Source: Phycisphaerales bacterium JB040
GTDB lineage: Bacteria > Planctomycetota > Phycisphaerae > Phycisphaerales > UBA1924
Length of the DNA stretch: 64,000 nt
Reading direction: 5' to 3'
Assembly (NCBI GenBank): GCA_043101615.1
Contig: JBICID010000101.1
Coordinates: 16,206 to 80,205 of the forward strand
Shown here one piece after another: positions 1,015 through 62,544 of this stretch. Position 1 is the stretch's first letter, and every line of letters starts with the position of its first letter. The notes under the pieces were generated by a model. The model was not told the DNA's origin and did not search any database. It saw nothing but the letters and a program-made list of their open reading frames with translations. The position numbers and the translations under genes are program-made.

Positions 1015-1063
1015 GGGGGCTCCTCTCGGGGCCCAGCCTACCGCGCATCCTGTGACGAGCAGA

Positions 1064-11666: not shown

Positions 11667-11890
11667 CTGGCCATCTCCTCGGCCTGCACCCCGGCGGAGC
11701 GGAGATCGGGCGTCCTGCCCGATGCGTGGCTGCCGCAAGGGTGGGAACGGATGTCTTGCGCCGGCCAGAGTTTATCCGGCGCACCGCCCCGGGCCGTGCG
11801 GCGCCGTGGCGTGTCCCCGATTTCACCGTTCTTTGACAGACCGGGCTGACCGTTTCATCGCGTGTTCTCGGACGGGCGCTCCGGGGGCCC

Positions 11891-24040: not shown

Positions 24041-25255
24041 TTAATACGCGCAACGCTTCCGCAGCCGGCGCTCGTCGTGCGGGTCGTGCGTGGCGAGAGC
24101 CTCGGCGATGCGGACGCCCGCCAGCCCGTCGCCGAAGGGGTGGCTCGCGCCGCCCTCGTCGGACGTGTCGCACTGGGCCGCGCGGTCGAGGGCCCCGCGG
24201 ATCGCCTCGGCGTCCTCCGCCGCCCAGAAGGTCAGGCCCTCGGCCCGCTCGCGACCCGCCTGGCGCTGCCCGATGTCCACGGTGGGGCACCCGAGGGCCG
24301 CGGCCTCGATCAGGCCCGAGGACGAGTTGCCGACCAGCACCCCCCCCCGGGAGTCTGGCTTGTCGTCCGCGTGCTGCTCGGCCAGGCGCTTCAGCACGCC
24401 GACGAACTCGTCGCGCGTCAGGTGGCGTTCCAGGTGGACCGCGTCGCCAGCGTTGACCAGCGCCCGCAGCACGCCCTCGCGCCCGGGGTCGAAGTTCGGG
24501 TGCAGCGCCAGCACGCGTCGGCCTTCCAGGGCCTCCAGCACCAGGCTGGTCGCGTGCTCCTCGGCCTCGTCGGTGCGCCCGATCGGGTGCATCAGCAGCA
24601 CGGCGTCCGGGGCGCCCAGCTCGGCCCATCGCTTGTCGCCGATCGGGCGGACCGAGGCGAGCCCGTCGAGCGCCGGCGAGCCGACCACGACCACGTCCTG
24701 CGGGCGCTCGCCCATCTTGCGGATGCGCTCGCCGGAGGTCACGGTCGCCGCGAGGTGCAGGTGGGCGAGCTTGGTGATCGCGTGTCGCATCGACTCGTCG
24801 GCGACGCCCTCGGCCCGGTCCCCGCCGTGGATGTGGGCCAGGGCCAGCCCGCCCAGGCTCGCGGCGGTCGCGGCCGCGTACGCCTCGACCCGGTCCCCCA
24901 GCACCACCACCCACTCGGGCGCGTGTGCCCGGAACGAGCGTCCGAAGCGCGAGATCCCCTTGCCGACCGCTTCCACGTCGGCCCAGCGTCCGACCTTCCC
25001 GGCGACCTGCATCGGGACCGAGTCCGCGACGTCGAAGTCCCGCTTCACGTCGTAGAAGGTCAGCCCGGGCTGGATGAGGTGCGAGCCCGAGGCGATCACG
25101 AGCAGTTCCAGGTCGCGGCGTGTCTGGATCGCGTGCATCACGGGGCGCAGCAGCCCGTAGTCGGCGCGCGAGCCGGTCACCACCGCCACGCGGCGCGGGC
25201 GGTCGGCCTCCGCGGTCCCGCTGCGTTCGTCGCCCGCCCAGTCCGGTCCGATCAT
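24041..25255 (-). CDS. neuC: UDP-N-acetylglucosamine 2-epimerase (hydrolysing), NeuC-like
   Basis: VAVVTGSRADYGLLRPV...HIHGGDRAEGVADESMRHAITKLAHLH...GNSSSGLIEAA, the NeuC/hydrolysing-epimerase blocks. Confidence 0.85.
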   Translation of the reverse strand: MIGPDWAGDERSGTAEADRPRRVAVVTGSRADYGLLRPVMHAIQTRRDLELLVIASGSHLIQPGLTFYDVKRDFDVADSVPMQVAGKVGRWADVEAVGKGISRFGRSFRAHAPEWVVVLGDRVEAYAAATAASLGGLALAHIHGGDRAEGVADESMRHAITKLAHLHLAATVTSGERIRKMGERPQDVVVVGSPALDGLASVRPIGDKRWAELGAPDAVLLMHPIGRTDEAEEHATSLVLEALEGRRVLALHPNFDPGREGVLRALVNAGDAVHLERHLTRDEFVGVLKRLAEQHADDKPDSRGGVLVGNSSSGLIEAAALGCPTVDIGQRQAGRERAEGLTFWAAEDAEAIRGALDRAAQCDTSDEGGASHPFGDGLAGVRIAEALATHDPHDERRLRKRCAY

Positions 25256-25331
25256 GCGCTGCCTCGCGTTCCGTCGGGGGGCGGTGGGGGCGTGCCATGC
25301 CGCCCTCGCCCCGGGCCACTACGCTTGCCCG

Positions 25332-26603
25332 ATGCCTCCCGGAGCATACACCCCGCCCGTCCGAACCACTCGTCGCGATCCCGAGCGACCGGTGCGAGTC
25401 CTCGTGCTGGGTTCGACGGGCTCCATCGGGACGCAGACGCTCGACGTGATCGACCATCTCAACGCCCTCGCGGAACGCGGCGAGACGGCGCAACGCTTTG
25501 CCGTCGTGGGCCTTGCGGGCGGCAACAGCTCGGACCTGCTCGACGCGCAGGCGCACACGCACGGGGTCTCGCGCGTGGTGCGGGCGTCCGACGACGAGCC
25601 GGGCCGCCCCGGCTCTGGCGCCGAGCGACTGGTGCGCGAGCTGGGCGAGGACGACGCGCTCCGCCCGGACATCGTCGTGGCCTCGATCGTGGGGGCCGCG
25701 GGCATCCGGTCCACGCTGGCCGCGGCGGGGCTGGGGCTGGACCTGGCGCTGGCGAACAAGGAGTCGCTGGTCGCGGCGGGGGAGCTGGTGGTGAGCGCCT
25801 GTCGCGCGTCCGGGGCGAGGCTGCTGCCGGTCGATTCCGAGCACGCGGCGCTGTGGCACGCGTCGATGTCGTTCGCCGGCCCGGGCTACGCCCCGCCCGC
25901 GCCGCTGCCGGCGGGCGTGCGCCGACTCGTTCTCACCGCCTCGGGCGGCCCGTTCCGCGACGCGGACGAGTGGCCCGCGGACCGGCTCGCGAGCGTCACG
26001 CCCGAGCAGGCGCTCGCCCACCCCACCTGGGACATGGGCCCCAAGGTCACCATCGACTGCGCCAGCCTCACCAACAAGGCGCTGGAGCTGATCGAGGCCC
26101 ACTGGCTGTACGGCGTCGGCGAGGACCGGCTCGACGTGCTGGTGCACCCGCAGTCCACGGTGCACTCGATGGTCGAGGGGGCCGACGGGTCGTTCGTGGC
26201 CCAGCTCGGCCCGACGGACATGCGGGCCCCGATCCAGCAGGCGCTGACCTTCCCGGAGCGCGTCGAGCCCGCGTGCGGTCGGATGGCGCTGGGCGCGCTC
26301 ACCCGCCTGGACTTCCACGCGCCGGACGAGTCGCGCTTCGGGGCGATCGGGCTGGCGCGGCGTGTGATGCGGCTCGGGGGCAGCGCGGGGGCCGTCTTCA
26401 ACGGGGCCAACGAGGAGGCGGTCAGGGCCTTCCTCGACGGACGCCTGGCGTTCGACCGCATCACCGCGCTCGCGGCGGAGGCGATCGACGAGCTGGGCGC
26501 GAGCGAGCTTCGCACCCTGGGGGACGTGTGGGAGGCGGACCGCGCGGCCCGCGAGTTCGTGCGGGCGCGTCTCGCCCCGTCCGGCGCGGGGCGTGCCCCA
26601 TGA
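25332..26603 (+). CDS. dxr: 1-deoxy-D-xylulose-5-phosphate reductoisomerase
   Basis: VLVLGSTGSIGTQTLDV, LANKESLV and PVDSEHAALW. I set the start at MPPGAY (25332). The ORF-track start 25254 adds an implausible extension. Confidence 0.93.
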   Translation: MPPGAYTPPVRTTRRDPERPVRVLVLGSTGSIGTQTLDVIDHLNALAERGETAQRFAVVGLAGGNSSDLLDAQAHTHGVSRVVRASDDEPGRPGSGAERLVRELGEDDALRPDIVVASIVGAAGIRSTLAAAGLGLDLALANKESLVAAGELVVSACRASGARLLPVDSEHAALWHASMSFAGPGYAPPAPLPAGVRRLVLTASGGPFRDADEWPADRLASVTPEQALAHPTWDMGPKVTIDCASLTNKALELIEAHWLYGVGEDRLDVLVHPQSTVHSMVEGADGSFVAQLGPTDMRAPIQQALTFPERVEPACGRMALGALTRLDFHAPDESRFGAIGLARRVMRLGGSAGAVFNGANEEAVRAFLDGRLAFDRITALAAEAIDELGASELRTLGDVWEADRAAREFVRARLAPSGAGRAP

Positions 26604-28393
26604 GCGACCCGAGGATCCTCAGGCAGCTCCAGCAGGCGCACGAGAAGTTCGCGAAGGGGCGTGTGGACGAGGCGATCGCGGGCGCCCGGCGCGCGATCGC
26701 GAAGGCCCCCGGGCACCCCGAGGGCGCCAGGCTGATCTGCCAGATGCTGCTGACCCGCGGGCGTGTGGACGAGGCGCGGTACGCGCTCGAGGGCGCCCTC
26801 CGGACACACCCCGAGCGTGCGGACCTGCACCTGCAGGCCGGCGAGGTCGAGGCGATGGCCGGCGGGCACGCCCCCGCGCTCGGTCACGTCGAGCGGGCGT
26901 TGGAGCTGTCCCCGGGCCTGCCCCGGGCCCTGGCGGTCCGCGGGCGGTTGCTGCTCGGGGCGGGGCGACACACCGAGGCCGTGGCGGATCTCCGCGCCGC
27001 GTCCGAGGAGCTGCCCGACGAGCCGGAGCACCGGTCGAATCTCTCGATGGCGCTGCTGGCGACCGGGCACGCGCCCGAGGCGTGCGACCTGCTGCGCGAG
27101 CTGTGCCGCGAGCGGCCCGCGTTCCTGCCGGCGCGGGCGGCGCTCGCGCAGTCGCTCAACTACCACCCGGACGCCTCGCCCGAGGAGATCGCCGAGGCGC
27201 ACCGGGCGTACGGACGCCTCGCCGAGAGCCAGGTGAACGAGCTCGCCCCGGACCCGGGCGCGCTCAAGGGAGACGGACCGGTCCGCGTGGGGTTCCTGAC
27301 GCGCGACCTGCGCCGGCACTCGTGCGCGTACTTCCTGCTGCCGATCCTGGAGCACCTGGACCGCGCCCGCTTCGAGCCCGTCGCGTACATGGACGACCCG
27401 CACGCCGACGACCTGACCGAGGTCTTCCGGGGACGGTTTGCGCTGTGGCGCGAGACGGCCCGGCTGAGCAACAGGGACCTCGCCGACACGATCCGCAAGG
27501 ACCGCGTCGGGCTGCTGCTCGACCTGGGGGCCCACTTCTTCGGCAACCGATTGGCGGTGATGGCCCACCGCCCCGCACCCGCCAGCGCGACCTACCTGGC
27601 CTACCCCAACACGACCGGCCTGTCGCGCGTGGACGCCCGGATCGTGGACGGGCTGACCGACCCCGAGGGGGGCGAGAGGGGGGCGGACCCCTTCGCGACC
27701 GAGACGCTGGTGCGGCTCGAGGCGCCGCTGTGGTGCTACCGCCCGGACACGGGCCTGCCCGAGCCCGGGGCGTGCCCGGACGGGCAGGCGTTCACCTATG
27801 CGAGCTTCAACGATCTCAAGAAGATCAACGGCCCACTGCTGGACGACTGGGCCGAGATCCTGACCAGGGCCCCCGGCACGCGCCTGCTGCTCAAGACCGG
27901 GGCGCTGGGCGACGACGCGGTCCGCGCGGAGCTGCGCGAGCGTCTCGCGTCGCGCGGCGTCGATCCGGACCGGTTCGAGCTGCTGGGGCACGTCGCGGAC
28001 CACGCCGAGCACCTGGCCCTGTACAGGCGGGCCCACGTCGCGCTCGACACCCACCCCTACTGCGGGACGACGACCACGCTCGAGGCGGCCTGGATGGGCG
28101 TGCCGACCGTGACGCTCGCTCCTGATGTCCCCCGTCACGCGTCCAGGGTCGGGCTGAGCCTGAACACGGCGCTGGGGCTGACGGACTGCATCACGGGATC
28201 ACGCGCCGAGTACGTGAACCGCGCGGTCGAGCTGGCAGAGTCGTTCCAGGCGGATCCCTCGCGGCTCAACACGCTGCGGGTGGGCCTGCGGGAACGGTTC
28301 GAGGGATCGCCCCTGCGAGACGAGGCGGGGTTTACCCGCAGGTTCGAGGCGGCGCTGGAGCGCGTCATCGAGCTCGCCCGCGGGCGCGCATAA
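26600..28393 (+). CDS. TPR-repeat protein fused to a GT41 (SPINDLY/O-GlcNAc-transferase-like) glycosyltransferase domain
   Basis: TPR-like helices at the N-terminus. The C-terminal half (VGFLTRDLRRHSCAYFLLP...SFNDLKKIN...LDTHPYCGTTTTLEAAWMGVPTVT) matches the bacterial SPY/OGT-like family. The ATG overlaps the dxr stop (ATGA at 26600-26603). Confidence 0.85.
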   Translation: MSDPRILRQLQQAHEKFAKGRVDEAIAGARRAIAKAPGHPEGARLICQMLLTRGRVDEARYALEGALRTHPERADLHLQAGEVEAMAGGHAPALGHVERALELSPGLPRALAVRGRLLLGAGRHTEAVADLRAASEELPDEPEHRSNLSMALLATGHAPEACDLLRELCRERPAFLPARAALAQSLNYHPDASPEEIAEAHRAYGRLAESQVNELAPDPGALKGDGPVRVGFLTRDLRRHSCAYFLLPILEHLDRARFEPVAYMDDPHADDLTEVFRGRFALWRETARLSNRDLADTIRKDRVGLLLDLGAHFFGNRLAVMAHRPAPASATYLAYPNTTGLSRVDARIVDGLTDPEGGERGADPFATETLVRLEAPLWCYRPDTGLPEPGACPDGQAFTYASFNDLKKINGPLLDDWAEILTRAPGTRLLLKTGALGDDAVRAELRERLASRGVDPDRFELLGHVADHAEHLALYRRAHVALDTHPYCGTTTTLEAAWMGVPTVTLAPDVPRHASRVGLSLNTALGLTDCITGSRAEYVNRAVELAESFQADPSRLNTLRVGLRERFEGSPLRDEAGFTRRFEAALERVIELARGRA

Positions 28394-28462: not shown

Positions 28463-29281
28463 TCAGCAGCCGGCGAGGAAGGCGTTGACGAAGGCCCCGA
28501 TGTCGCCGTTGTCGATGATGCCGTCCACGGTGAAGTCGGCCGCCGGGTCCTGGGCCAGGAAGAGTGTGATGAAGGCACCGATATCGCCGTTGTCGACCAC
28601 GCCGTCGGCGTTCAGGTCCGGCGGGCAGGGCGGCTCGATCGGGCCGACCGAGATCGCGAACCCGACGGTGGAGAAGCTCGGCCCCTCGGCGACGATCCTC
28701 GCGGAGCGGATCACCGGGGCGGGAAAGTGCACGCCCTTGAAGTCGAGAAACAGCTTCAGATGGATGATGTCCGCGGTGTAGAAGTCCGCGAGCAGGGCCC
28801 CCTCGCCGTTCGGTGCGTCGAAGACCTGGATGCGGTCGCGGTCGTTCGGCGTCAGGCTGGTCGCGAACGGCCCGAGGATGGAGGTGCTGCCGAACGCGGT
28901 CAGTGGCTCGGAGAAGTTGATGATCAGGTCACCGGTGGTCGGTGACGGGTTGGCGTAGTCCCCGTCGAAGTCTCCCGGGTCGACCATCGGGTCGGGGGTG
29001 ATCCGGAAGGAGTCCCAGGTGCTCGGGGTGTAATTGATGCAGCCCGAGGGGAAGCGGTGATCGATGGTGAATTCGCTGTAGTAGGACGCCGTCACGATGT
29101 GCCCGGCGCCCGTGTCGATGGGGATCGAGTCGCGATAGTGCACGCCGCACGGTGAGGGGTTGTCGATGTCGTAAAAGACGGCGTACGGGATGTCTGAGAA
29201 GGAATCGACCACCGTGCCCTGGGCGCGGGCGTGGTTGTTGGTGATCACGACGACGGCCAAACCCGACACGAGCGTGCGCAT
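28463..29281 (-). CDS. secreted hypothetical protein with a C-terminal 54-aa GC-ending dockerin-like module
   Basis: Signal-like MRTLVSGLAVVVITNNHARAQG, with GGAGG upstream. The C-terminus is CPPDLNADGVVDNGDIGAFITLFLAQDPAADFTVDGIIDNGDIGAFVNAFLAGC-stop. Confidence 0.85.
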   Translation of the reverse strand: MRTLVSGLAVVVITNNHARAQGTVVDSFSDIPYAVFYDIDNPSPCGVHYRDSIPIDTGAGHIVTASYYSEFTIDHRFPSGCINYTPSTWDSFRITPDPMVDPGDFDGDYANPSPTTGDLIINFSEPLTAFGSTSILGPFATSLTPNDRDRIQVFDAPNGEGALLADFYTADIIHLKLFLDFKGVHFPAPVIRSARIVAEGPSFSTVGFAISVGPIEPPCPPDLNADGVVDNGDIGAFITLFLAQDPAADFTVDGIIDNGDIGAFVNAFLAGC

Positions 29282-29415
29282 GGGAAGCCTCCGGATGGAT
29301 CGCGCGAGTCTACCCATCCGTGCGCTCGCTTCCACCGGGTGCGCGGGGCTCGCCGTTCGAAAAACACGCGACGGACGGCGGGCGGACGGGGCCGATACGG
29401 TCGCGGTTCGTGTGT

Positions 29416-30834
29416 TCAGCAGCCGGCGAGGTAGGCGGTGACGAAGGCGCCGATGTCGCCGTTGTCGAGGATGCCGTCGCCGGTGAAGTCGGCCGCGAGG
29501 TCCGAGTCGAGGAAGAGCGTGACGAAGGCGTTCAGGTCGCCGTTGTCGAGCACGCCGTCGGCATTGATGTCGGGCGTGCAGACGGTCTCGCACGAGTCGG
29601 CGACGCCGTTGTTGTTGTCGTCCACGGGGTTGGCCGAGACGATGCGTCGCAGCTCGCCGCTGCCGTAGAGCGCCATGTACATCTCGCCGGCGAGGTCCTC
29701 GCCGAAGGAGGTCAGCTCGAACCCGCCCGGCCCGATCTGGTTGGTGAGGTTCTGGAAGTCGGTGCGCGAGACGCCGTCGGTCTTGAGTGCCCAGACCTGT
29801 CCGGTGCAGTAGTCGCCGAAGAGGTACCAGCCGTCCAGCTCGGGCGCGGCGCACCCGCGGTAGACGTACCCGCCGGTGATCGACGCGCACACCTTGCCGA
29901 CGTGCGTGTAGTCGTGAACAGGCTCGGTCAGCGTCGACGGGTCGGGGCAGTTGCCGGTGTTGAAGTCGAAGGTGCCCTCGCGGCAGCGCCAGCCGTAGTT
30001 CTCGCCGCCCACGCTGGACGCGCCCTGAAAGTTGACCTCCTCGCGCGCGTTCTGCCCGACGTCGGCGATGTACAGGTCGCCGGTCTGGCGGTCGAAGCTG
30101 TTCCGCCACGGGTTGCGCAGCCCGTAGGCCCAGATCTCGTCGAGCCCGCTCACGCCCACGAACGGGTTGGACGACGGGACAGCGTAGTTGCGCGCGTTGT
30201 CGGCTGGGAAGTCGTCCCCGTCCACGTCGATCCGCAGCATCTTGCCCAGCAGCGTCTCGAGGCTCTGCCCGTTGCCGACGTCCGGGTTGTGCCCGGCGCC
30301 CGTGTCCCCGCTGCCGCCCCCGTCGCCCGAGGCTATGTACAGGTACCCGTCCGGGCCGAAACCGAGCCACCCCCCGTTGTGGTTCGCCTGCGGCTGCCCG
30401 ATCCGCAGCAGCTCGCGACGGGACGAGGCGTCGGCCCGCGTCGCGGTCAGCGGGTCCCCGTCGGCGGCGTACTCGGCCAGCACCGACGTCCCCGAGAGCT
30501 CGGTGTGGTAGATGTAGAACAGCCCGTTCTGCTCGAACTGCGGGTGGAAGGCCAGCCCCAGCAGCCCCTGCTCGCTGACGGTGCTGGTGCTCGAGGCGAT
30601 GTCGAGGTAGCTCGCCCCCTGCACCTGCCCGCTCGCCAGGTCCACCAGCCGGATCCGCCCCGCCTTCTCGAGCACGTACAGGCGGCCCGCGTCCCCGGGC
30701 GCGTGCGTCACGAACGTCGGAGAGCTCAGGCCCGTCGCGACGGTCTCGGTCGACAGGTCGAGCTGGGCCGACGCGAGCGACGAAGAAACGGCGAGCGCGG
30801 AAGCGGCGAGCACGGTGCTGGGTCTGCGGGGCAT
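29416..30834 (-). CDS. PQQ-dependent (soluble) sugar dehydrogenase-like beta-propeller with a C-terminal GC-ending dockerin-like module
   Basis: GLLGLAFHP, NHNGGWLGFGPDGYLYIASGDGG, GLRNPWRNSFD and the LYIADVGQN blocks are typical of the sorbosone/glucose dehydrogenase family. Signal-like MPRRPSTVLAASALAVSSSLASAQ. The C-terminus is CTPDINADGVLDNGDLNAFVTLFLDSDLAADFTGDGILDNGDIGAFVTAYLAGC. Confidence 0.88.
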   Translation of the reverse strand: MPRRPSTVLAASALAVSSSLASAQLDLSTETVATGLSSPTFVTHAPGDAGRLYVLEKAGRIRLVDLASGQVQGASYLDIASSTSTVSEQGLLGLAFHPQFEQNGLFYIYHTELSGTSVLAEYAADGDPLTATRADASSRRELLRIGQPQANHNGGWLGFGPDGYLYIASGDGGGSGDTGAGHNPDVGNGQSLETLLGKMLRIDVDGDDFPADNARNYAVPSSNPFVGVSGLDEIWAYGLRNPWRNSFDRQTGDLYIADVGQNAREEVNFQGASSVGGENYGWRCREGTFDFNTGNCPDPSTLTEPVHDYTHVGKVCASITGGYVYRGCAAPELDGWYLFGDYCTGQVWALKTDGVSRTDFQNLTNQIGPGGFELTSFGEDLAGEMYMALYGSGELRRIVSANPVDDNNNGVADSCETVCTPDINADGVLDNGDLNAFVTLFLDSDLAADFTGDGILDNGDIGAFVTAYLAGC

Positions 30835-30925
30835 GGTCCCTCCCTTGGAATGGTGCCAGCCCAAGGCTACACGACAACCCGGACCGCTCCAAGGGAATTC
30901 GCAAACCGGAGGTGCGTGTCCGTGC

Positions 30926-32722
30926 TCAGCACCCCGCCAGGAAGCGCTCCACGAACGCGTGTATGTCGCCCTGGTCCACCACGCTGTCGCCGTTCACGTC
31001 GGCCCAGCGCGAGCCGGACAGGAACTCGCTCACGAAGCCGCTGATGTCGCCCAGGTCGAGCACGCCGTCGCCGGTGAACTCGGCCGGGCAGAAGTAGGCG
31101 TTGGGTGTGGCGAGCACGAGCGCCTCGGTGGTGTCCTCAAAGCGGACGGAGAGCAGGACCTGCTTGTGCGCGTTGGCGGAGGCCGGTCGCCCGTGGTGGC
31201 GTCCGTCCGACGGCGTGACGAACACGGCGTCGACGATCCGCACGTCGCCGGGGCCGACCTCCAGCGCGTCGCCGTGACGGAGGATGAGGCGCGGGCGCGG
31301 GGCGGCGTCGGACATCACCGCGGCGTACCCCTCGCCCAGGTCGTCCTCCACCCAGCACCACGCCGCGACGTGCCCGTCTCCGAGCGCCGCCATCGGCGCG
31401 AACGTGAACAGGTCCCAGTTGGCGACGAGGCCGGCGAGGGGCTCGAGGTCGATCGGGACACGGCGCTCGTTCATCAGCCAGCGTTCGTCTCCGCCCTGCG
31501 TGCGCTCGATCAGCCCGTCCATGAGGTCGAGCACCTCGTCGTCGGCCTGGACCATGATGAGCACGTTCCCGTCCTCGTCGGTCTGGTAGTCGCCGATGTG
31601 CTTCACCTCGTCGCCGGGAGCGCCCCCGGGCACCGGGTCGCCCTCCTGCTTGAGCACGCTCAGCACCCCGGCGTTCCACTCCAGCAGCACGTAGGAGCCG
31701 AAGTTGGTCGCCTCTTCCCGGGCCGCGGCGAAGAAGACGATGCGCTGCTCGCCCGCGAACAGCGGGCGGTTGGTCGCGCTCTGGCCCTGCGGGTAGGTCA
31801 GGCTCTGCAGGTAGCGGGGCGGGTCGTACCCGGGCACCTCGTCCCCGCTGATCGCGACCGGGTTCCCGCCCGTGGCCGGGCGGCTGGTGAAGATGCCCGA
31901 GCCCGGCGCGGTCCCGCCGTCCTCCAGCAGGCGAGCGTCCCACAGCAGGCGCCCGTCGCCGCTGGCGCTCAGCGTCCCGAACGCGTGGTAGTTCCAGGCC
32001 GTTTCGCTTCCGAACACCGGGGCCGCGTCGCCGGTCCGGGCCAGCTCCTCGCCGAACTGCCCGTCCGCGGTCACCAGGGCGATCGCGTCCGAGCCGTCGG
32101 CGTAGTTGACGATGACCCCGAGCGAGCCGTCCCGCCCGTACACGACCGGGTCGTTGCGCCCGCGGATGTTCCTGTCCAGGTCCTCGCCCGGGGCGATCCC
32201 GGTCGGCGGGTTCCACGGGTCGAACAGCACGGACGGCTGGTTGTCGTCGGTGCGCCGGAAGACGACGCGGCGCTGGTCGCTCTGGTCCGGGTTGGAGACG
32301 TACGCCGCGAACGCCGCGTCCGCGTCGGACTCGCTGAAGAACAGGTCGAACGGGAAGGTCCGGTCGAGCAGCATGACCTCGCCGGCGACCAGCCCCGGCG
32401 CGGTGTCGCCCTGCTGCGCGATCGCGGAGAGGGCGAGCGGCGCGTTCGGATCGCCCCGCATCAGCACCGCCTCGCCCGCCTGCTCGGTCAGCACGGGGTC
32501 GAAGAGCTGCGCGCCGAACATCGCCCCGGACCGGTCCGAGAGTTCCGGCAGGTGGTAGGACCGCACCCGGTCCACGCCGACGCTCTCGAAATCGAAGCCG
32601 GGGACGGGCGCGCCCTCGGGCAGCCGGGTCGAGGCCACCACGTCCAGGTCGAACGCACGCGGCGGGGGCGTCGCCATCGCCTGGCCCACCACACACGCCA
32701 CGACCGCTGTCTGTGTCCGCAT
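30926..32722 (-). CDS. secreted hypothetical protein (598 aa) with a C-terminal GC-ending dockerin-like module
   Basis: Start at MRTQTAVVACVVGQAMA, with GGGAGGG upstream. The C-terminus is CPAEFTGDGVLDLGDISGFVSEFLSGSRWADVNGDSVVDQGDIHAFVERFLAGC. Confidence 0.8.
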   Translation of the reverse strand: MRTQTAVVACVVGQAMATPPPRAFDLDVVASTRLPEGAPVPGFDFESVGVDRVRSYHLPELSDRSGAMFGAQLFDPVLTEQAGEAVLMRGDPNAPLALSAIAQQGDTAPGLVAGEVMLLDRTFPFDLFFSESDADAAFAAYVSNPDQSDQRRVVFRRTDDNQPSVLFDPWNPPTGIAPGEDLDRNIRGRNDPVVYGRDGSLGVIVNYADGSDAIALVTADGQFGEELARTGDAAPVFGSETAWNYHAFGTLSASGDGRLLWDARLLEDGGTAPGSGIFTSRPATGGNPVAISGDEVPGYDPPRYLQSLTYPQGQSATNRPLFAGEQRIVFFAAAREEATNFGSYVLLEWNAGVLSVLKQEGDPVPGGAPGDEVKHIGDYQTDEDGNVLIMVQADDEVLDLMDGLIERTQGGDERWLMNERRVPIDLEPLAGLVANWDLFTFAPMAALGDGHVAAWCWVEDDLGEGYAAVMSDAAPRPRLILRHGDALEVGPGDVRIVDAVFVTPSDGRHHGRPASANAHKQVLLSVRFEDTTEALVLATPNAYFCPAEFTGDGVLDLGDISGFVSEFLSGSRWADVNGDSVVDQGDIHAFVERFLAGC

Positions 32723-32806: not shown

Positions 32807-33712
32807 TCATCCGCCGGACTGGAGCCGGCGCCGACGGAGCGCGGGGCGCTCGTGGATCGCGGTCGAGCCGCCCACGGCCGCGTCCAGGTCTCGCACCGGC
32901 CCGAGGGCGATCCGCTCGGCCGCGTGCTCGGCGTTGGGCTTGGAGTACTCGCACCCGATGAAGCTCCGCCCCATCGCGTGGGCGACCACGCCCGTGGTGC
33001 CGCTGCCCAGGAACGGGTCGAGCACGAGCATGCCGGGGTCCGAGCAGGCCGCGACGACGCGGTGCAGGTAGACCTCTGGGAGCTGGTTGTCGTGCTTGTG
33101 CCGGCGTTCCTTGTTGTTGCCCTGGATGCGTCCCCAGTACTCGCCGTACCAGACGTCCATGGGCACGCGCAGGCCGGCGGGCATGCCGTCCTTCTTGGAC
33201 TCGGTGCGCGGGTCGGCGTAGACCGCCCGCCGGTCGGAGGTCTCGACCACCGCCTCGGGGTTCCACACGCGGTTGGCCCGGTCCTTTGCGAAGTACAGCG
33301 CGTGCACCTTCGAGTTGATGAAGCGGCGCTTGGTGTTCTGCCCGAACCGGTAGTGCCAGATGCACCAGTTCACCATGTCCAGCCCGCGCGACTTGAGGTG
33401 GACCACGATCTCCGCGGCCCAGCTGTCCGGGATGTTGACCCACATCGAGCCGTGCGGCGCCAGCCCGTCCACGCACAGGTCCAGCCAGTCGCGTGTGAAC
33501 GCGAGGTACTCGTCCTCTGACATCGAGGCGTCGTCCCACGCGTCGCCGGTCTGGTGCCGGTCGTAGTCGCGGGCCCAGTTGAAGGGCGGGTCGGCGAAGA
33601 CCAGGTCGAGCCCGCCCGAGGCGACCTCCGGGATCTTCGGCAGCAGCTCGCGACAGTCGCCCCGGTAGATCCGCGTCGTGCAGTCGGCGTGGGCCCGGTT
33701 CGGGATCGACAT
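32807..33712 (-). CDS. site-specific DNA methyltransferase (N4/N6, beta-class motif order), orphan
   Basis: Motif IV FADPPFN lies near the N-terminus and motif I DPFLGSGTTGV near the C-terminus. No endonuclease gene lies next to it. Confidence 0.9.
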   Translation of the reverse strand: MSIPNRAHADCTTRIYRGDCRELLPKIPEVASGGLDLVFADPPFNWARDYDRHQTGDAWDDASMSEDEYLAFTRDWLDLCVDGLAPHGSMWVNIPDSWAAEIVVHLKSRGLDMVNWCIWHYRFGQNTKRRFINSKVHALYFAKDRANRVWNPEAVVETSDRRAVYADPRTESKKDGMPAGLRVPMDVWYGEYWGRIQGNNKERRHKHDNQLPEVYLHRVVAACSDPGMLVLDPFLGSGTTGVVAHAMGRSFIGCEYSKPNAEHAAERIALGPVRDLDAAVGGSTAIHERPALRRRRLQSGG

Positions 33713-33865
33713 CGGGCTCCTGATGGTGCCGGCGCCGGTGAACGGCTTCCTGCGCCGCCCGGCGCGCTCGCCGGGCGCACGGGTGTGTGATGTGCCGGTG
33801 GCGTGTGTCCTAGGGTGGGTGCAATATAGCGCGTGGCGCGCGCCCGCGCCACCGGGGACGCCCTG

Positions 33866-35441: not shown

Positions 35442-35867
35442 TCAGCGGTCGCGCGCCAAACGGCGCGTCAGGGACGCCAGGGCCTCCAGCGTCTCGGTCG
35501 AGCAGTGGTGCTCGATCCCCTCGGCGTCCACCTCGGCCTGCCCCTCGGACACGCCCGCCGCCCGCAGGAACGCCACCACGATCTCGTGGCGCTCCCTCGC
35601 GTGGGCGGCCATCCGCTCGCCCTTGACCGTCAGCACGATCGGCTGGTAGGGCTCGGTCCGCACCAGCCCGTCGCGTTCCAGGCGCGTCACGGTCCGGTTG
35701 ACGGTGACGTGCGAGACCCCCAGCATCTCGGCCAGGTGGGTCACCCGGGCCACGCCCCGACGCTCGATCAGTTCCGCGATGGCCTCGACGTAGTCCTCGG
35801 CGACCTCGAGGGCGTGGGCGGCCCGGGTCGCCTCGAACCGCTCGGGATCGCTCGCGCGCCGGGGCAT
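35442..35867 (-). CDS. DtxR/MntR-family metal-dependent transcriptional repressor
   Basis: EDYVEAIAELIERRGVARVTHLAEMLGVSHVTVNRTVTRLERDGLV (winged HTH) plus a metal-binding/dimerisation region ERHEIVVAFL...IEHH. Confidence 0.88.
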   Translation of the reverse strand: MPRRASDPERFEATRAAHALEVAEDYVEAIAELIERRGVARVTHLAEMLGVSHVTVNRTVTRLERDGLVRTEPYQPIVLTVKGERMAAHARERHEIVVAFLRAAGVSEGQAEVDAEGIEHHCSTETLEALASLTRRLARDR

Positions 35868-36706
35868 CAGCCCGACCCGCCCGCGGGCCCGGCGTCCCGG
35901 TCCTGCTCCAGCTCCAGCAGCATCGCGTGCTTCTGAAGTGTGGCGCTGGCGGTCGCCAGCGCCGCGAGCCAGCCCGCCCGCCCGTCACGCCACGCCTGCT
36001 TGAGCACCATCTGCTTCAGGAACGCCCCGGCGGGCGAGGTCAGGCAGCGCAGGCGCGAGCCGCGCTTGCCCGCCTCGTGCAGGTTCGCCGCCATCAGGCG
36101 GGCGTACCCCGAGTCCTTGGCGAACTGGTCCGCGAACGACTCGAACGAGTCGTGGATCAGCGTCCCGGCCAGGTCGTACTCGCGCACGCTCCGATCGACA
36201 CTCAGCTCCAGCTTGTCGTGCGGGTCCAGCCCGGTCCAGCGCGCCATGGCCCGGGGCACCAGGCGCAGCCGCCACTCCGGCTGCCACGCGTGTCGCAGCA
36301 GTCGCCCGCGGTAGGTCACCCTTCGGTTGACCCGGGCGCACGCGGGGCGTCGCTCGTCGGGCTCCTCTCCCTCGTCCCCGACGAAGGCCCGGATCGAGGA
36401 CGCGAGCTCGTCGTCCACGATCTCGTCGGCGTCCAGGCAGAGCGCCCAGGGGCGCGAGCAGCGGTCCAGCGCGAGCTGCTTGGTCCTGACGTGCCCCAGC
36501 CACTTGTGCTCGTGCACCGTGGCGCCGTGCTCGCGCAGCAGGTCCATCGTCCGGTCGGTCGAGCCCGAGTCCACCGCCACGATCTCGCCCGCCCACTCCG
36601 ACACGCTCTCCAGCACGCGACCGATGGTGCGCTCGGAGTTCTTGCACACGATGGAGATCGAGATCGGCAGGCGCTCGGGCACGCCCAAGCCTACCCCCCC
36701 CCACAT
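35867..36706 (-). CDS. glycosyltransferase family 2 protein
   Basis: ISISIVCKNSERTIGRVLESV...IVAVDSGSTDRT...CLDADE (DxD), a GT-A fold signature. Confidence 0.85.
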   Translation of the reverse strand: MWGGVGLGVPERLPISISIVCKNSERTIGRVLESVSEWAGEIVAVDSGSTDRTMDLLREHGATVHEHKWLGHVRTKQLALDRCSRPWALCLDADEIVDDELASSIRAFVGDEGEEPDERRPACARVNRRVTYRGRLLRHAWQPEWRLRLVPRAMARWTGLDPHDKLELSVDRSVREYDLAGTLIHDSFESFADQFAKDSGYARLMAANLHEAGKRGSRLRCLTSPAGAFLKQMVLKQAWRDGRAGWLAALATASATLQKHAMLLELEQDRDAGPAGGSG

Positions 36707-36813
36707 CGGGACGCATCCGGCGGGAGGCCCCGGAAGTGGGCATGGGGGCCCGGCGCGAGCGCCGGGGCTCGCACGCGCGGAAAGTCCAGGCGGGCGCCTC
36801 CCAATACACTCTC

Positions 36814-38128: not shown

Positions 38129-41062
38129 ATGTCGATCCGTCCGAAGCGGATGCTGACCCTCGCGGTCGGCTGTGCCCTGTCCGCAAACACGCTCGCCGGT
38201 GAGGGCGAGGCCGGCCCGGAACAGGCCCGCGCCGGCGGGCCGGTGCAGGTGTCGTTCCTGTGGCACATGCACCAGCCGATCTACGTCCCGTACGTCGACC
38301 CGATGACGGCCAACGGGTTCTTCTCGTTCTCGGTGACCGACGTGCACAACTCGCGGTTCGGCCCGTACACGACGTGGCCGGCCGACGCGGTCGGGATCGG
38401 CGTCTCGATGCCCTACCTGGGTGCCCAGGTCAGCTTCTCCGGCTCGCTGATGGAGAACCTGAACAGCATGGAGTCCGCCGGCATCAACGGCGGGATGTGG
38501 AACAACTGGAGCGGGACGTACGCCGGGGCCCAGTCCATGCTCACCGCGGGGGGCAACCGTCGCCTCGAGCTGGTCGGCTTCGGGTACCACCACCCGCTGA
38601 TGCCGCTGATCGACGAGAAGTCGATCCGCATGCAGGTGCGCCTGCACCGGATGATCGCGGGCGCGGAGATGGGCGCCCCGGCGAGCCGCGGGATCTTCCC
38701 GCCCGAGACCGCGTTCAGCACGAGGATCATCCCGGCGCTGGTGGCCGAGGGCATCGAGTGGGTCATGGTGGACAACATCCACTTCGACCGCGCCAGCCAG
38801 AACTACCCGTGGAACAGCGGCACCAGCATCATCCCGCCCAACCGGGCCGACCAGATCAATCCCGACCCGGCGTCCAACGGCGGGCGGTGGGTGCAGCTCA
38901 ACAACCTCTGGGCCCCCAGCCCGGTCTCCGTGCCCTTCGGCTACCAGCCCGCGTACACGCAGCACGTGGACCCGGAGACCGGCACCGTCACCCAGATGAT
39001 CGCCGTCCCCGCGGCCCGGTACGAGGGCAACGAGGACGGGCGGGGCGGCTACGGGGCCTTCCTGTACGACCAGGTGATGGACGCCTACGTCAACGACTCG
39101 CTCACCGCCGACCGCCCCATGCTCGTGCTGCTGCACCACGACGGCGACAACTTCGGCGGCGGCAGCGAGGCGTACTACCACCACAACTTCCAGAACATGG
39201 TCAACTGGGCCAGCGCCGACCCGGACTACGACGTCACGACCGTCAACGACTACCTCGACCGCTTCCCCGTCCCGGCCAACGCGCTCATCCACATCGAGGA
39301 CGGCTCCTGGGCCGGGGCCGACGCCGGCGACCCCGAGTTCAAGAAGTGGCTCGGCGGGGACGTGAGCGCGGGGGCGGTCAGCCCGGACATCAACTCGTGG
39401 GCCGCCCTCGTCTCGGCCCGCAACACGCTGGCCACCGCGGAGCAGGTCTTCGGGGCGGTCGACGTCACCAACGCCTCGCACATGTCCAACGTCATGCAGG
39501 GCGTCGGCACCGACGTGCAGCGGTCCTGGCACTGGATGCTCGTGGGTCAGGCCAGCGACTACTGGTACTGGGACGGCACCGAGGTGTGGGACTCCAACCC
39601 GACCCGGGCCGCCAACCAGGTGCACGCGATCGCCGGGACGGCCCTGGCCGCCGCCTTCTTCCAGGACCAGACCCCGCCGACGGTCTTCGTCCCGCAGCGC
39701 GAGCCGTACAACCCGGGCGCGTTCGAGTGGAACCAGACGCCCGAGCCGTCCGACTTCGAGGTCTGGACGCTCATCGACGACTGGAGCGGCGTGGCCGACG
39801 CGACGCTCAAATGGCGGATCGACGCCGACGGCGCCAACCCGCTGAGTTCGGTCCAGAACGAGACCTACGCCGGCGGGCCCGAGGTCGGCCCGTGGCAGAG
39901 CGTGCCGATGACGGCGAACGCGGTGCCGACCCCGGCGGGCGTCCTCGCCGCGACCGACAAGGCGGTCCGCTACGGGGGGACGATCGCGGGCCAGCAGAAC
40001 GTGCTGATCGACTACTACGTCGAGGCGACCGACACCGCCGGGAACACGGCGCGATCCGAGATCATGCACGTCTGGGTCGGCGACGGCGCGACCGGGGGCA
40101 CGGGCAGCGCGGTCACGCTGCTGCCCGAGACGCCCGTCGCCGGGCAGCCCGTCACCGTCACCTACGACCCGGCGGGCGGCCCGATCGCGGGGGCGTCCAC
40201 GGTCGTGCTGCACTACGGCTTCAACGGCTGGACCGGCGTCTCCGACGTCGCGATGAGCGGGCCCGACACCGAGGGGCTGTTCAGCGTCACCGTCCCCGTC
40301 CCCTCCACCGCCACCGAGTTCGACTTCGTCTTCAACAACGGCGCGGGCGTCTGGGACAACAACAACGGGCAGGACTGGATCATCCCCGTCAGCGGCGGTG
40401 AGCCCGGACAGCAGTGGGAGATCGACGGTGCCCTCGACACCGAGGCGCAGCAGCTCGCCACCTCGTCCGGCGTCACCCTCTGGGCCGGCCTGATCGACAG
40501 CACGCTCTACCTCGCGACCGAGCCCGCCGGCGCCGGCAACGACCGCTTCCTGTTCCTGGCCGAGACCCCCGGTGCACCCGCCGCGCACCCGTGGGCCAAG
40601 TCCGGCACCGTCGCCCAGTGGGACGCCTACATCGGCAACGAGGCCGACAACGGCTGGGCGGGCTGGTTCGGCGGCGCGGGTGCCACGCTCGCCAGCGGCG
40701 GCGTGCTCGAGACCACCGTGGACCTGGTCGCCATGTTCGGCTCCGTGCCCGAGTCCGTCGCGGTCGCCGTGGGCAGCTACGCGTCGCCCGACGGCGGGGC
40801 GCTGGTCGCCCAGTCCCCCGCGGGCAACGCCGACGGGAACATCGACGCCTCCGAATACCTCGTCATCGACCTCTGCTCGCTCACGCCGGAGGGCTGCTGC
40901 CCGGCCGACGTGAACGGCGACGGCGTGCTGGACAACGGCGACATCGGGGCGTTCGTCACGCTCTTCCTCGCGGGCGACCCGGCCACGGACTTCAACGCCG
41001 ACGGCATCCTCGACAACGGGGATATCGGGGCGTTCGTCACACTTTTCCTCGCCGGGTGCTGA
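38129..41062 (+). CDS. secreted GH57 alpha-glucan-active enzyme with a CBM25-like starch-binding domain and a C-terminal GC-ending dockerin-like module
   Basis: All five GH57 regions are visible: WHMHQPIY, LELVGFGYHHPLMPL, IFPPETAFS, LLHHDGDNFGG and ASDYWYWDG. The CBM25-like segment is VVLHYGFNGW...FDFVFNNGAGVWDNNNGQDW. Signal-like MSIRPKRMLTLAVGCALSANTLAG. The C-terminus is CPADVNGDGVLDNGDIGAFVTLFLAGDPATDFNADGILDNGDIGAFVTLFLAGC. Confidence 0.88.
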   Translation: MSIRPKRMLTLAVGCALSANTLAGEGEAGPEQARAGGPVQVSFLWHMHQPIYVPYVDPMTANGFFSFSVTDVHNSRFGPYTTWPADAVGIGVSMPYLGAQVSFSGSLMENLNSMESAGINGGMWNNWSGTYAGAQSMLTAGGNRRLELVGFGYHHPLMPLIDEKSIRMQVRLHRMIAGAEMGAPASRGIFPPETAFSTRIIPALVAEGIEWVMVDNIHFDRASQNYPWNSGTSIIPPNRADQINPDPASNGGRWVQLNNLWAPSPVSVPFGYQPAYTQHVDPETGTVTQMIAVPAARYEGNEDGRGGYGAFLYDQVMDAYVNDSLTADRPMLVLLHHDGDNFGGGSEAYYHHNFQNMVNWASADPDYDVTTVNDYLDRFPVPANALIHIEDGSWAGADAGDPEFKKWLGGDVSAGAVSPDINSWAALVSARNTLATAEQVFGAVDVTNASHMSNVMQGVGTDVQRSWHWMLVGQASDYWYWDGTEVWDSNPTRAANQVHAIAGTALAAAFFQDQTPPTVFVPQREPYNPGAFEWNQTPEPSDFEVWTLIDDWSGVADATLKWRIDADGANPLSSVQNETYAGGPEVGPWQSVPMTANAVPTPAGVLAATDKAVRYGGTIAGQQNVLIDYYVEATDTAGNTARSEIMHVWVGDGATGGTGSAVTLLPETPVAGQPVTVTYDPAGGPIAGASTVVLHYGFNGWTGVSDVAMSGPDTEGLFSVTVPVPSTATEFDFVFNNGAGVWDNNNGQDWIIPVSGGEPGQQWEIDGALDTEAQQLATSSGVTLWAGLIDSTLYLATEPAGAGNDRFLFLAETPGAPAAHPWAKSGTVAQWDAYIGNEADNGWAGWFGGAGATLASGGVLETTVDLVAMFGSVPESVAVAVGSYASPDGGALVAQSPAGNADGNIDASEYLVIDLCSLTPEGCCPADVNGDGVLDNGDIGAFVTLFLAGDPATDFNADGILDNGDIGAFVTLFLAGC

Positions 41063-41115
41063 CCCGCACGCCCGCCTCCCGAACCGACCGACCGCACGCC
41101 GCGTAAGGACTCACC

Positions 41116-47735: not shown

Positions 47736-48134
47736 TCAGGACCGCAGCGGGGCCAGCGCCCGCACCCGCGGGTCGCGCAGCCAGAGCGACACCCACGCCA
47801 GCACCCCCAGCAGCACCGGGACCGCCAGCTCCACCTCCTCCAGGCGGGCGTGGGCCGACGTCGCCCCCCCCAGGTACCCCGTGATCAGGATCGCCCCGAG
47901 CACCGCCGTCTTCGGCAGCAGGTACAACGCGACGCACACGAGCTCGACGATGCCGAGCGCCGGGGCCAGCGACGACGGCCACCCCAGGTCGGCAAAGCCC
48001 TGCTCGACCTGCTCTCCGCCGGCCAGTTTCATCGCCCCGCTCATCGCGAGCATCCCGACGGGCGGCAACGCCGCGACCCAGCCCGCGACGGCCGTCTTGC
48101 TCACGCCGGATCCGGCAGCGGGCTGATCGTTCAT
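47736..48134 (-). CDS. DoxX-family membrane protein
   Basis: 132 aa with four hydrophobic segments and KLAGGEQVEQGFADLGWP...ITGYLGGA, typical of DoxX-like proteins. AGGAG lies upstream of the ATG at 48132-48134. Confidence 0.8.
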   Translation of the reverse strand: MNDQPAAGSGVSKTAVAGWVAALPPVGMLAMSGAMKLAGGEQVEQGFADLGWPSSLAPALGIVELVCVALYLLPKTAVLGAILITGYLGGATSAHARLEEVELAVPVLLGVLAWVSLWLRDPRVRALAPLRS

Positions 48135-48634
48135 GCGTGCTCCTGACCGGGACTGACCGGTCGATTCGACCCGTGGTGCCGGGGTCCACTCTACCGACCC
48201 TCGGAGCGACCCGTGGCGGGTTCCGAGCCAACTGTGGGGGTGGGTGGCACCTGTTCCGGTGGGTGGCTTGTCACAATTTTGACCACGCGCCGATCTCGCG
48301 CCGAACTTTCCCGCACGTTGGTGGTATGACAGGGGCAACGTCCGGTATGTTCCGGCGTTTAGCAACGCTCGATGCGCCTTGGATGCGGTTATCGGGCCAC
48401 GCCATCCGGTTACCGGACGCCCCACCCACACGACGTTCGACGTGTCACACCGGGGCGGTCGGGGACCCGATGAGGGGAGCCGTCTCCCCGGGTGGTGGTC
48501 CGATGCCGCCGGCTCGCGCGAGCACGACAGGTTCAGGTGACGGGCGACCCCCCCGACGTCGGGGGTCGCGGGCCGCAACACGTGACCGGCCCGCACGCCG
48601 CCCCTCACACCGGTTCAACAGTGGAGAAACGGTG

Positions 48635-51600: not shown

Positions 51601-51871
51601 GTCGATGGACCAGGGCGGCTACTCGTCGGCCGGGAAGGCCGTCAAGACGCTGGCCACCCAGCAGCTCCGAGACCTGCACGCCAGGATCGAGAGCGTGCTG
51701 AGCAACGGCGCCCAGGGCAAGGCCGACCCGTACACACGGGCACACTTCAACGAGATCGCCCTCCGCATCGAGAAGGCCCTCGACGCACAGTTCATCTACA
51801 ACACCGACGACATCTCCGCGGGCGGCGGCGGCGTCATCTTCCTCGGACAGACCGCCCAGCCCGGCGAGTAA
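48635..51871 (+). CDS. large secreted zinc-dependent metalloprotease (HExxHxxGxxH)
   Basis: HEVGHTIGLRHNF plus a downstream SVMDY. Signal-like MQNRQRNKTITTGLLALAVGSAMSVAWA. GGAGAAACGGTG precedes the ATG. There is a Cys-rich insert, CAACGEDGCTCAEGECTC. The upstream 166 aa of the ORF-track entry are rejected. Confidence 0.88.
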   Translation: MQNRQRNKTITTGLLALAVGSAMSVAWAPQPANAYEPPAEGADSAVAPSGLESIDLAQLQAMAQARASSSARKDDKPAWKDVSEGFTKVISTADGGSLYNVFLNKEKNQLLAELPRGWERQKHFFAMTVSSGEEFAGLQAGDLYVQWQKINDRLALVLPQVNVRSLGEEGSRDSVERLFTDRVLLSVPIVTNGPSGQPVIDLDDLLVGNAGRFFGGSAAGLNSGLTTVEKVKAFPENIEVTLKGPVANGTFKSFHYSISRIQGTPGFQPRKADERVGFFTTSFQDYGTYDRNELNVRYANRWHLEKADPKLKMSPPKEPIIYYVEHTVPVRYRRWVKEGIEYWNKAFENIGIIGAIEVRYQDKASGAHMEKDPEDVRYNFIRWLHNNVSTAIGPSRVNPETGEILDADVVLTDGWIRVFTYRWSELLPDLAMEGMSPETMAWLEANPEWDPRVRLAEPAERSNILAERRARGVSRYGGHPAAVSSDSPLVGHSEFDGLHRTSQSAGLCHAASGKALALAQMQMYLSALPAITAAQCVCDHGTEAGLTAVARGPDDQPELDEDTIERLRKQIEANPALAEMIPESYKAALGLTQPEQPEEAEDGAEEKPEACAACGEDGCTCAEGECTCAKKDQGQLLDGNPEWFVGPMLAELVAHEVGHTIGLRHNFKGSSTYEFSEINSEEFRGSKPWSNSVMDYNGINIRMPGFADAQGDYSVIDIGPYDMWAIEYGYGFGDPAEVAKRAAEPELQYATDEDTWGPDPYARRYDLAKDTITYARNQMALAQTLRESILENFVEEGESWSNARRGYQTTLSTQLSSLSMMANWVGTAHVYRDKKGDPNGRAPIEVVDAAKQREALNFVIENSFNDEAYGLTPDLLQYLTVDKWWDTGGMSSIMTDPTYQIHDTILGVQASAMTMLLNPTTLQRVYDLERFVQEGDDALTLPEVMGTISDAAWSELDGSHDGSFTARKPMVSSLRRNLQREHVSRLIDLSMDQGGYSSAGKAVKTLATQQLRDLHARIESVLSNGAQGKADPYTRAHFNEIALRIEKALDAQFIYNTDDISAGGGGVIFLGQTAQPGE

Positions 51872-61479: not shown

Positions 61480-62544
<1,065 letters not shown>

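Follow-up and report, generated by a model that had tools for sequence, protein, structure and literature searches.

Why do seven proteins with unrelated domains, all encoded within a single stretch of DNA, end in the same 54 amino acids (aa), and what does this ending do for them? The question is raised by 64,000 nucleotides from Phycisphaerales bacterium JB040 (contig JBICID010000101.1, positions 16,206 to 80,205 of the forward strand), which were analyzed as a whole and are referred to here as the window. Three consecutive genes at 28463-32722 and four genes further along encode proteins that terminate in a cysteine-bounded module. The initial annotation took this module for a dockerin-like C-terminal tag with two calcium loops. 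The main points of that reading are supported by our analysis, whereas the length assigned to the internal repeat and the EF-hand fold had to be corrected. We consider it probable that the module is a mini-dockerin, loaded with Ca2+ and clasped by a disulfide, through which many exported proteins are held on a common receptor in the cell envelope.

The seven carriers and their C-terminal module

The window has a G+C content of 70.3%, and genes were therefore assigned by third-position GC and then confirmed with family searches. The seven carriers (c1 to c7) and their modules are listed below, with bit scores against the NCBIfam model NF041540 (dockerin_GC), which has a curated cutoff of 29 bits.

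28463-29281, minus strand: c1, 272 aa from the NCBI start; signal-peptide-like N-terminus, passenger of about 195 aa of unknown function, module; 48 bits; the same as P0010 / MFG0306666.1, GenBank 'GC-type dockerin domain-anchored protein'
29317, minus strand: alternative upstream ATG of c1, a start other than NCBI's
28466-28627, minus strand: module of c1, 54 aa, CPPD...FLAGC, stop
29416-30834, minus strand: c2, 472 aa; signal peptide, pyrroloquinoline quinone (PQQ)-dependent glucose/sorbosone dehydrogenase beta-propeller (Pfam GSDH, E 3e-35), module; 41.4 bits; the same as P0158, GenBank 'PQQ-dependent sugar dehydrogenase [Phycisphaerales bacterium JB040]'
29419-29580, minus strand: module of c2, CTPD...YLAGC, stop
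30926-32722, minus strand: c3, 598 aa; signal-peptide-like N-terminus, DUF7453 passenger (Pfam E 7e-17), module; 40.8 bits; the same as P0019, GenBank 'GC-type dockerin domain-anchored protein'
30929-31090, minus strand: module of c3, CPAE...FLAGC, stop; the most divergent of the seven
38129-41062, plus strand: c4, 977 aa; signal peptide, GH57 (Glyco_hydro_57), CBM53/CBM_25 starch-binding module, GC module; 42.2 bits
40898-41059, plus strand: module of c4, the sequence modeled by AlphaFold
41116-43464, plus strand: c5, 782 aa; signal peptide, CBM_48, GH13 (Alpha-amylase, Alpha-amylase_C), module; 44.4 bits
43300-43461, plus strand: module of c5, GC-type dockerin
43569-46058, plus strand: c6, 829 aa; signal peptide, FG-GAP/VCBS-type beta-propeller repeats (Pfam FG-GAP_3, E 6.5e-48, 11 stretches), module; 39.7 bits; the same as P0034
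45894-46055, plus strand: module of c6, GC-type dockerin
60268-61287, minus strand: c7, 339 aa; signal peptide (..SSVASAQ|TV), passenger of unknown function, module; 45.5 bits
60271-60432, minus strand: module of c7, GC-type dockerin

Translation of the seven module intervals given in the initial annotation, together with a six-frame scan, confirmed every coordinate. Each interval encodes a 54-residue peptide that starts with Cys (followed by Pro in six modules and by Thr in that of c2) and terminates in ...[FY]LAGC with a stop codon directly after it, so that the exact Cys-to-terminal-Cys length claimed for all seven holds without exception. The six-frame regular-expression scan of the whole window returned these seven module ends and 14 Ca-loop motifs, and no further copies of the module. 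The alignment of the seven has 20 invariant columns out of 54 and a mean column identity of 80%. When 10,970 six-frame open reading frames (ORFs) were searched with a local hidden Markov model built from the seven, each module scored 97-104 bits (E 1e-28 to 1e-30). This similarity is far beyond chance. The frequency of identical codons at identical residues (0.62-0.85, compared with 0.64 expected from codon bias) led us to reject gene conversion as its main cause. Because codon-level similarity is close to what codon bias predicts, conservation of the module is attributed to selection on the peptide and not to recent gene conversion.

By inspection, all seven proteins begin with a basic residue followed by a hydrophobic stretch, in agreement with the signal-peptide-like N-termini noted earlier. 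Their passengers were also described as unrelated to one another, and family searches bore this out: GH57 with CBM53/25, GH13 with CBM48, a PQQ dehydrogenase, FG-GAP repeats, DUF7453, and the passengers of c1 and c7, for which no Pfam family was matched. A relative of c7 (P0018, 84% identical) likewise terminates in the module. The adjacent tagged alpha-glucan enzymes c4 and c5 (38129-43464, plus strand) look like an extracellular starch- or glycogen-degrading pair.

Family, fold and cysteine pair

All seven carriers scored above the NF041540 cutoff (39.7-48 bits), the isolated module scored 50.5 bits, and in each case the match extended over the full model (positions 1-67). The extreme C-terminal position and the Gly-Cys ending that go with this model were found in all seven proteins (...AGC, stop), and we see no difference between the family and the modules of the window. 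The name given in the initial annotation was thus the right one; GenBank uses it for c1 and c3 ('GC-type dockerin domain-anchored protein [Phycisphaerales bacterium JB040]'). NF041540 is an annotation model. The earlier remark that no experimental description was known also agrees with our full-text literature search for 'GC-type dockerin', which gave no paper with the term and no experimental work. Since the family is already curated and carriers already bear its name, the finding is known as a kind, and the window adds members to it, not a new kind. Added here are the 27-aa period of the repeat, a fold-level placement with dockerins rather than EF-hands, statistics on the Cys pair that speak for a clasp at the canonical positions, the number and variety of tagged proteins per genome, the choice-of-anchor pattern, and the half modules and poly-module proteins.

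The repeat was measured on 177 distinct 54-aa modules pooled from all searches. Identity between the two halves is 62% at an offset of 27 residues and about 5% at neighboring offsets, and the repeat unit is therefore 27 aa; the internal duplication proposed earlier stands, whereas its unit of roughly 23 aa does not. Each unit consists of a 12-residue loop, D-x-N-x-D-G-x-x-D-x-x-D, followed by a helix, D-I-G-A-F-V-x-x-F-L-A-G. Conservation is 68-98% at the Ca-ligand positions (D4/N6/D8/G9/D12/D15 and D31/N33/D35/G36/D39/D42) and 85-98% at most of them, and the 'DNGDIGAF' helix faces are near-identical between halves and across paralogues.

Comparison with both Pfam Dockerin_1 and NCBIfam had been proposed in the initial annotation, and the two databases gave different answers. 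Whereas NF041540 was passed by every carrier, matches to Dockerin_1 (PF00404) remained below its threshold of 22.9 bits, the best being 15.2 bits for c5 (E 0.026), with 11.2 bits for c1, and the isolated module had no match at E<=1. Nor is the module a canonical EF-hand pair by sequence, as scores for the Pfam models EF-hand_1/5/6/7 did not exceed 13.9 bits, with cutoffs near 25. Bridging relatives found with the module profile do pass Dockerin_1 (P0006 with 83.7 bits, P0008 with 62.1 and P0009 with 72.7), and precomputed PF00404 matches are on record for some of the c2 orthologues whose tails are Cys-bounded. The description that suits the module best is that of a divergent and minimal dockerin-superfamily member, which belongs neither to Pfam Dockerin_1 nor to the EF-hand pairs.

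AlphaFold2, run on the seven-sequence alignment with the module of c4, returned a model with a predicted local distance difference test score (pLDDT) of 95.7, with helices at residues 13-24 and 40-52, a short turn at 28-30 and no entering helix before the first loop. When this model was compared with the PDB by Foldseek, the best nine matches were all dockerins from cohesin complexes (2VN5, 4FL4, 2VN6, 2Y3N, 4DH2, 2CCL, 2OZN), with template modeling (TM) scores of 0.57-0.61, root-mean-square deviations (rmsd) of 2.3-3.5 A and probabilities of 0.66-0.93. Dockerins were again the best matches in a sequence-profile search of the PDB (E 0.006-0.09). The true EF-hand pairs of polcalcin and calmodulin superposed poorly on the model (TM 0.29-0.35, rmsd about 8 A). 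The predicted structure thus supports the F-hand arrangement of dockerins over a canonical EF-hand pair. Of the double loop-helix unit described earlier, the loop with its Ca ligands and the helix that follows are retained, and the EF-hand label is replaced (TM 0.57-0.61 against about 0.32).

The nearest structural relatives are the type I clostridial dockerins (Clostridium cellulolyticum Cel5A, 2VN5/2VN6; Clostridium thermocellum Xyn10B, 1OHZ/2CCL). These likewise have two duplicated DxNxDGxxxxxD Ca2+ loops with helices and a near-perfect internal two-fold sequence symmetry, are C-terminal on secreted enzymes, and superpose with TM of about 0.6 and rmsd of 2.3-3.5 A. They are about 60-70 aa long, whereas the GC module has 54 aa and a minimal inter-repeat linker, is bounded by two conserved cysteines and falls below the Dockerin_1 threshold. 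Its host belongs to the Gram-negative Phycisphaerales, and its passengers are mostly not plant-cell-wall enzymes.

The two cysteines are conserved as a pair. A module-profile search of 1.84 billion representatives gave, among the best 151 proteins, 83 that end in LAGC and 108 that end in Cys; the Cys-to-Cys spacing was exactly 54 aa in 97 of these 108. Among 84 unique strong modules from the fetched genomic loci, both cysteines were present in 76, neither in four and one in four (Fisher's exact test, p = 9e-5). The initial annotation had offered two ideas for these residues, a closing disulfide and a modification of the terminal Cys. One residue, often Pro, follows the last Cys in 22 of the 84 modules, and both cysteines are kept in the internal tandem copies of P0007, P0024 and P0049, which argues against any function that needs a free C-terminal Cys; of the two ideas, the closing disulfide is favored on these sequences. 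In every intact dockerin structure, residues -3 to -1 ahead of the first Ca loop are in contact with residues at the C-terminus (Slutzki et al. 2013, PMC3821032). This 'intramolecular clasp' stabilizes the Ca-bound fold, the cohesin-binding face and the binding of cohesin. Cys1 is at clasp position -2 and Cys54 is the C-terminal residue. Given these places, a Cys1-Cys54 disulfide that acts as a covalent clasp would be the most economical reading. The known clasps are non-covalent and consist of aromatic-proline stacking and salt bridges, whereas that of the GC module would be covalent.

Distribution of the tag and choice of anchor

A scan of species-representative genomes returned at least 76 loci, nearly all from Phycisphaerales, Phycisphaeraceae or Planctomycetota metagenome-assembled genomes (MAGs), and in nearly all matches the module was at the extreme C-terminus. 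Assemblies with the module include CP060234.1 (HK-STAS-PLAN-6), OZ243106.1 and CP159477.1, the last from the cultured strain ac7, whose tag is a variant. The closest among the matches listed came from MAG JBLHKT01 (67-83% identity), and the approximately 0.4 Mb fetched from this MAG encoded at least 62 distinct full-length modules. Its 57 non-redundant carriers fell into 37 passenger clusters, which include FG-GAP, LVIVD and Kelch propellers, subtilases (S8), M1, M10, M12, M14 and M64 peptidases, alpha-amylases, CotH, LTD and a SASA esterase. A crude heuristic test for signal peptides was passed by 59% of the module ORFs and by 26% of other ORFs (p = 1e-10). The c5 orthologue in JBLHKT01 (L018:6844-9441), 64% identical, retains the module, and the c2 orthologue in this MAG likewise retains its tag. 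Phycisphaerales are abundant marine and freshwater polymer degraders. The tag directly marks a set of their exoenzymes, with at least 62 proteins in one MAG and seven in the 64-kb window, including amylases, many peptidase families and beta-propeller binding proteins.

Shortened and multiplied forms of the module were also found. Five proteins of JBLHKT01 end in half modules, that is, a single F-hand unit of 27-29 aa with Cys first and ...GC last, as if one repeat period had been deleted:

L008:3681-4643, plus strand: half-module protein
L012:6519-8363, plus strand: half-module protein
L020:9652-11610, plus strand: half-module protein
L030:1250-1846, minus strand: half-module protein
L005:3917-4663, plus strand: half-module protein

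Since a single unit cannot plausibly close on itself, half modules may pair between molecules. Functional single-loop dockerins occur in Ruminococcus flavefaciens (Duarte et al. 2025, PMC12270676), where the 'group-2' dockerins are naturally truncated to a single repeat with one Ca loop. These offer a precedent for the Cys-bounded half modules, which differ from them in retaining both cysteines.

Poly-module proteins from the profile search carry 5-10 internal tandem Cys-bounded modules. P0007, P0024, P0049 and P0079 (1003-1293 aa) consist of a signal peptide, an N-domain (about 500 aa) for which a weak astacin-like match was obtained, and the tandem modules; for two of them (P0024 and P0079, from Planctomycetota MAGs), GenBank likewise has the name 'GC-type dockerin domain-anchored protein'. 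P0006, P0008 and P0027 (487-609 aa) have tandem modules and pass Pfam Dockerin_1. Other Phycisphaerales and Planctomycetota lineages carry distinct subtypes of Cys-bounded C-terminal double-F-hand modules, namely a ..GCP subtype (L035, L039, L044), a DLADLNxVLxxFG subtype (L059, L063, L064, L066, L071, L073) and a long-linker subtype with an extra Cys (L041, L043, L048, L051). As judged from these tails, a wider family spans the phylum and has the GC type as one of its branches.

The role of the module was approached through the passenger of c2, for which the 120 best homologues (50-76% identical) were compared. Their tails are of four kinds: the 54-aa GC module, another Cys-bounded double-F-hand, a hydrophobic helix with a basic tail, or, rarely, nothing. 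Cys-bounded double-F-hand tails were found in at least 66 of the 120 by a strict regular expression, 48 of them with both cysteines, and by eye in most of the rest. PEP-CTERM/IPTL-CTERM-like tails were found in 14 of the 120, plus two by eye (e.g. P0205 '...IPVPTLSEWGLVVLLFLLLAVGSTVIKRRSIA' and P0259 '...VPEPAAMVIVALGFVGVLWRQRGSRT'). The GC module thus fills the slot of recognized surface sorting signals on the same enzyme, which is indirect support for a role in retention or anchoring. This 'choice-of-anchor' pattern, in which homologues 50-57% identical carry PEP-CTERM or IPTL-CTERM at the same C-terminal position, suggests an equivalent role in surface retention. The two kinds of tail differ in build: PEP-CTERM/IPTL-CTERM signals are a short motif with a transmembrane helix and a basic tail, and are processed by an exosortase, whereas the GC module is a soluble, folded, acidic domain. 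It lacks the features of exosortase-type sorting signals, and no NCBIfam model of such signals matched it. A word-indexed search for homologues of the c3 (DUF7453) passenger returned only c3 itself. This passenger also has a sub-threshold match to the NCBIfam family 'choice-of-anchor tandem repeat NxxGxxAF' (18.4 bits, cutoff 50), a family named for C-terminal anchors that vary between lineages.

Proposed docking partner, alternatives and neighboring genes

We propose the following arrangement. The module would be a minimal dockerin of 54 aa, with two 27-aa F-hand units (a 12-residue Ca2+ loop plus a helix) packed like those of cellulosomal dockerins. Both loops would bind Ca2+, and a disulfide from the Cys two residues before the first loop to the C-terminal Cys would hold the module shut as a covalent 'intramolecular clasp'. 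Fused to the C-terminus of many unrelated, presumably Sec-exported proteins, the module would serve as a common docking tag that tethers its carriers to a shared envelope receptor protein, either cohesin-like or functionally equivalent. Exoenzymes and binding proteins would thereby be kept at the cell surface of Gram-negative Phycisphaerales. If the receptor were identified, a system of surface display would be defined for a lineage that is Gram-negative and non-cellulolytic, and the older question of what non-cellulosomal dockerins bind would come closer to an answer. A disulfide-locked, Ca2+-dependent docking module of 54 aa could also serve as a compact part for designer enzyme assemblies.

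Several observations weigh against this proposal. All modules of the window are sub-threshold for Dockerin_1. For a domain of 54 aa, Foldseek E-values of 0.5-1.3 do not reach significance, and the fold argument therefore rests on the unanimous ranking of dockerins and on the PDB profile search. With regard to the disulfide, mature c3 and c7 would have an odd number of cysteines, and three modules have the terminal Cys but no Cys at position 1; in one of the three, a Cys occurs three residues upstream of that position. Many PQQ sugar dehydrogenases are periplasmic enzymes, so that exposure at the surface is no more than presumed, and 6-10 tandem modules per protein are atypical for cohesin-dockerin systems. 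Finally, no partner was detected. In line with the initial annotation, none of the 57 ORFs scanned in the window matched a cohesin, sortase or exosortase in Pfam or NCBIfam, and no such match was present among the families shown for 96 secreted-looking, module-free neighbor proteins in related genomes. A CipA cohesin probe (checked as a cohesin against the PDB) returned nothing from the 10,970 six-frame ORFs of the window and 77 loci (best E 2.8), a search with a single sequence and of low sensitivity. These partner searches covered the window and about 0.8 Mb of related loci, that is, genome fragments, and the negative results are weak for this reason.

Two further candidates for a partner were considered. 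The DUF1559/N-methyl pseudopilin-like family (eight members), which was the only recurrent neighbor family, was rejected as it is ubiquitous in Planctomycetota. Mature c1 was modeled with AlphaFold without an alignment to see whether its passenger is cohesin-like, and the pLDDT (31.6) was too low for use.

Cohesins do occur in the class Phycisphaerae. For the Nemodlikiaceae (CL500-3), a non-cellulosomal surface assembly of cohesins and dockerins, the 'planctosome', has been hypothesized from Pfam-detectable cohesin and dockerin domains in freshwater MAGs, with M12B and M14 peptidases and an LTD-containing anchor (Andrei et al. 2019, PMC6461901). In Limihaloglobus sulfuriphilus, a single Coh-Doc-Coh protein is accompanied by 13 dockerin fusions (PMC11557425). 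The GC-tagged set of JBLHKT01 resembles the planctosome in that it also has M12, M14 and LTD proteins, and differs in that no cohesins were seen in the genome fragments examined here, whereas those of the planctosome are detectable with Pfam.

That no cohesin was detected in the sequence examined would also be expected if the module docked to a non-protein component of the envelope (lipopolysaccharide or capsular glycan, peptidoglycan), or if it were a partnerless, Ca2+-dependent, disulfide-locked stabilizing cap. Such an explanation would spare the cell the very abundant receptor that at least 62 tagged proteins per genome would need, the window is rich in glycan-building genes, and dockerin-like modules reportedly far outnumber cohesins in Planctomycetes. 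We nevertheless consider it unlikely: every structural match is a cohesin-bound dockerin, the near-identical 'DNGDIGAF' helix faces have the pattern of a conserved protein-recognition surface, and cohesins exist in Phycisphaerae (PMC6461901, PMC11557425).

As a second alternative, dedicated outer-membrane machinery might read the module as a signal for export or sorting and possibly then remove it, as for the C-terminal domain of the type IX secretion system (T9SS) or for PEP-CTERM and exosortase. Its strictly C-terminal position, its dozens of unrelated exported carriers and its replacement by PEP-CTERM/IPTL-CTERM-like tails in close homologues all agree with this explanation. The properties of the module itself make it improbable. 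The module is acidic, with no hydrophobic stretch of 17 or more residues that could form a transmembrane segment and no Arg/Lys tail. Its predicted structure is that of a well-folded, helical domain of 54 aa with Ca loops, unlike the beta-sandwich of about 70-100 aa that is the T9SS C-terminal sorting domain, for which it had no NCBIfam or Pfam match. No sorting-signal model in NCBIfam was matched, internal tandem arrays are unexpected of a terminal signal, and no sortase or exosortase was found among the 57 ORFs scanned in the window.

In a third alternative the modules would bind one another, by pairing of F-hands, by intermolecular disulfides or by both, and the 6-10-module proteins would serve as scaffolds for single-module enzymes in place of a cohesin. 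In its favor are the failure to find a cohesin in the sequence examined, the existence of poly-module proteins under the same GenBank name (P0024 and P0079) and the half modules with both cysteines, which could pair between molecules. We consider it very improbable, as the AlphaFold monomer is confidently closed on itself, the constant distance of 54 aa from Cys to Cys agrees with a clasp within one molecule, and no precedent for dockerin-dockerin assembly is known to us. A broader speculation, to which we give only a small chance, is a cohesin-independent system of surface display specific to Phycisphaerales, in which dozens of exoenzymes would be held on an unrecognized receptor fold or on poly-module scaffolds, covalently locked by disulfide exchange at the near-terminal Cys, and in which half modules would be obligate intermolecular partners.

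Other genes of the window and of a related locus were recorded. The glycan-building genes (8979-11771, 24041-25318, 26600-28393, 35867-36811, 53533-54399 and 61480-62661) comprise GT4, UDP-GlcNAc 2-epimerase, TPR-GT41, GT2, sulfotransferase and GDP-mannose 4,6-dehydratase, a set that fits active synthesis of envelope or capsule polysaccharide. In a related MAG, the neighborhood of P0002 contains signaling genes and SecA only. Four further genes of the window are listed here:

32807-33865, minus strand: N6/N4 DNA methylase, directly upstream of c3; no evident link to the module
56456-57379, minus strand: Mrr-type restriction endonuclease; no evident link to the module
1-1155, minus strand: SASA-family carbohydrate esterase, cut by the window edge with its C-terminus outside the window
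47885-51871, plus strand: large met-zincin protein (about 1,240-1,330 aa; DUF4953 and DUF5117), with neither a GC module nor an NCBIfam match

In the SASA-family protein an Ig-like domain, which has a sub-threshold match to 'Ca2+-stabilized repeat adhesin', precedes the esterase domain. The met-zincin may be another exported peptidase that is anchored in a different way.

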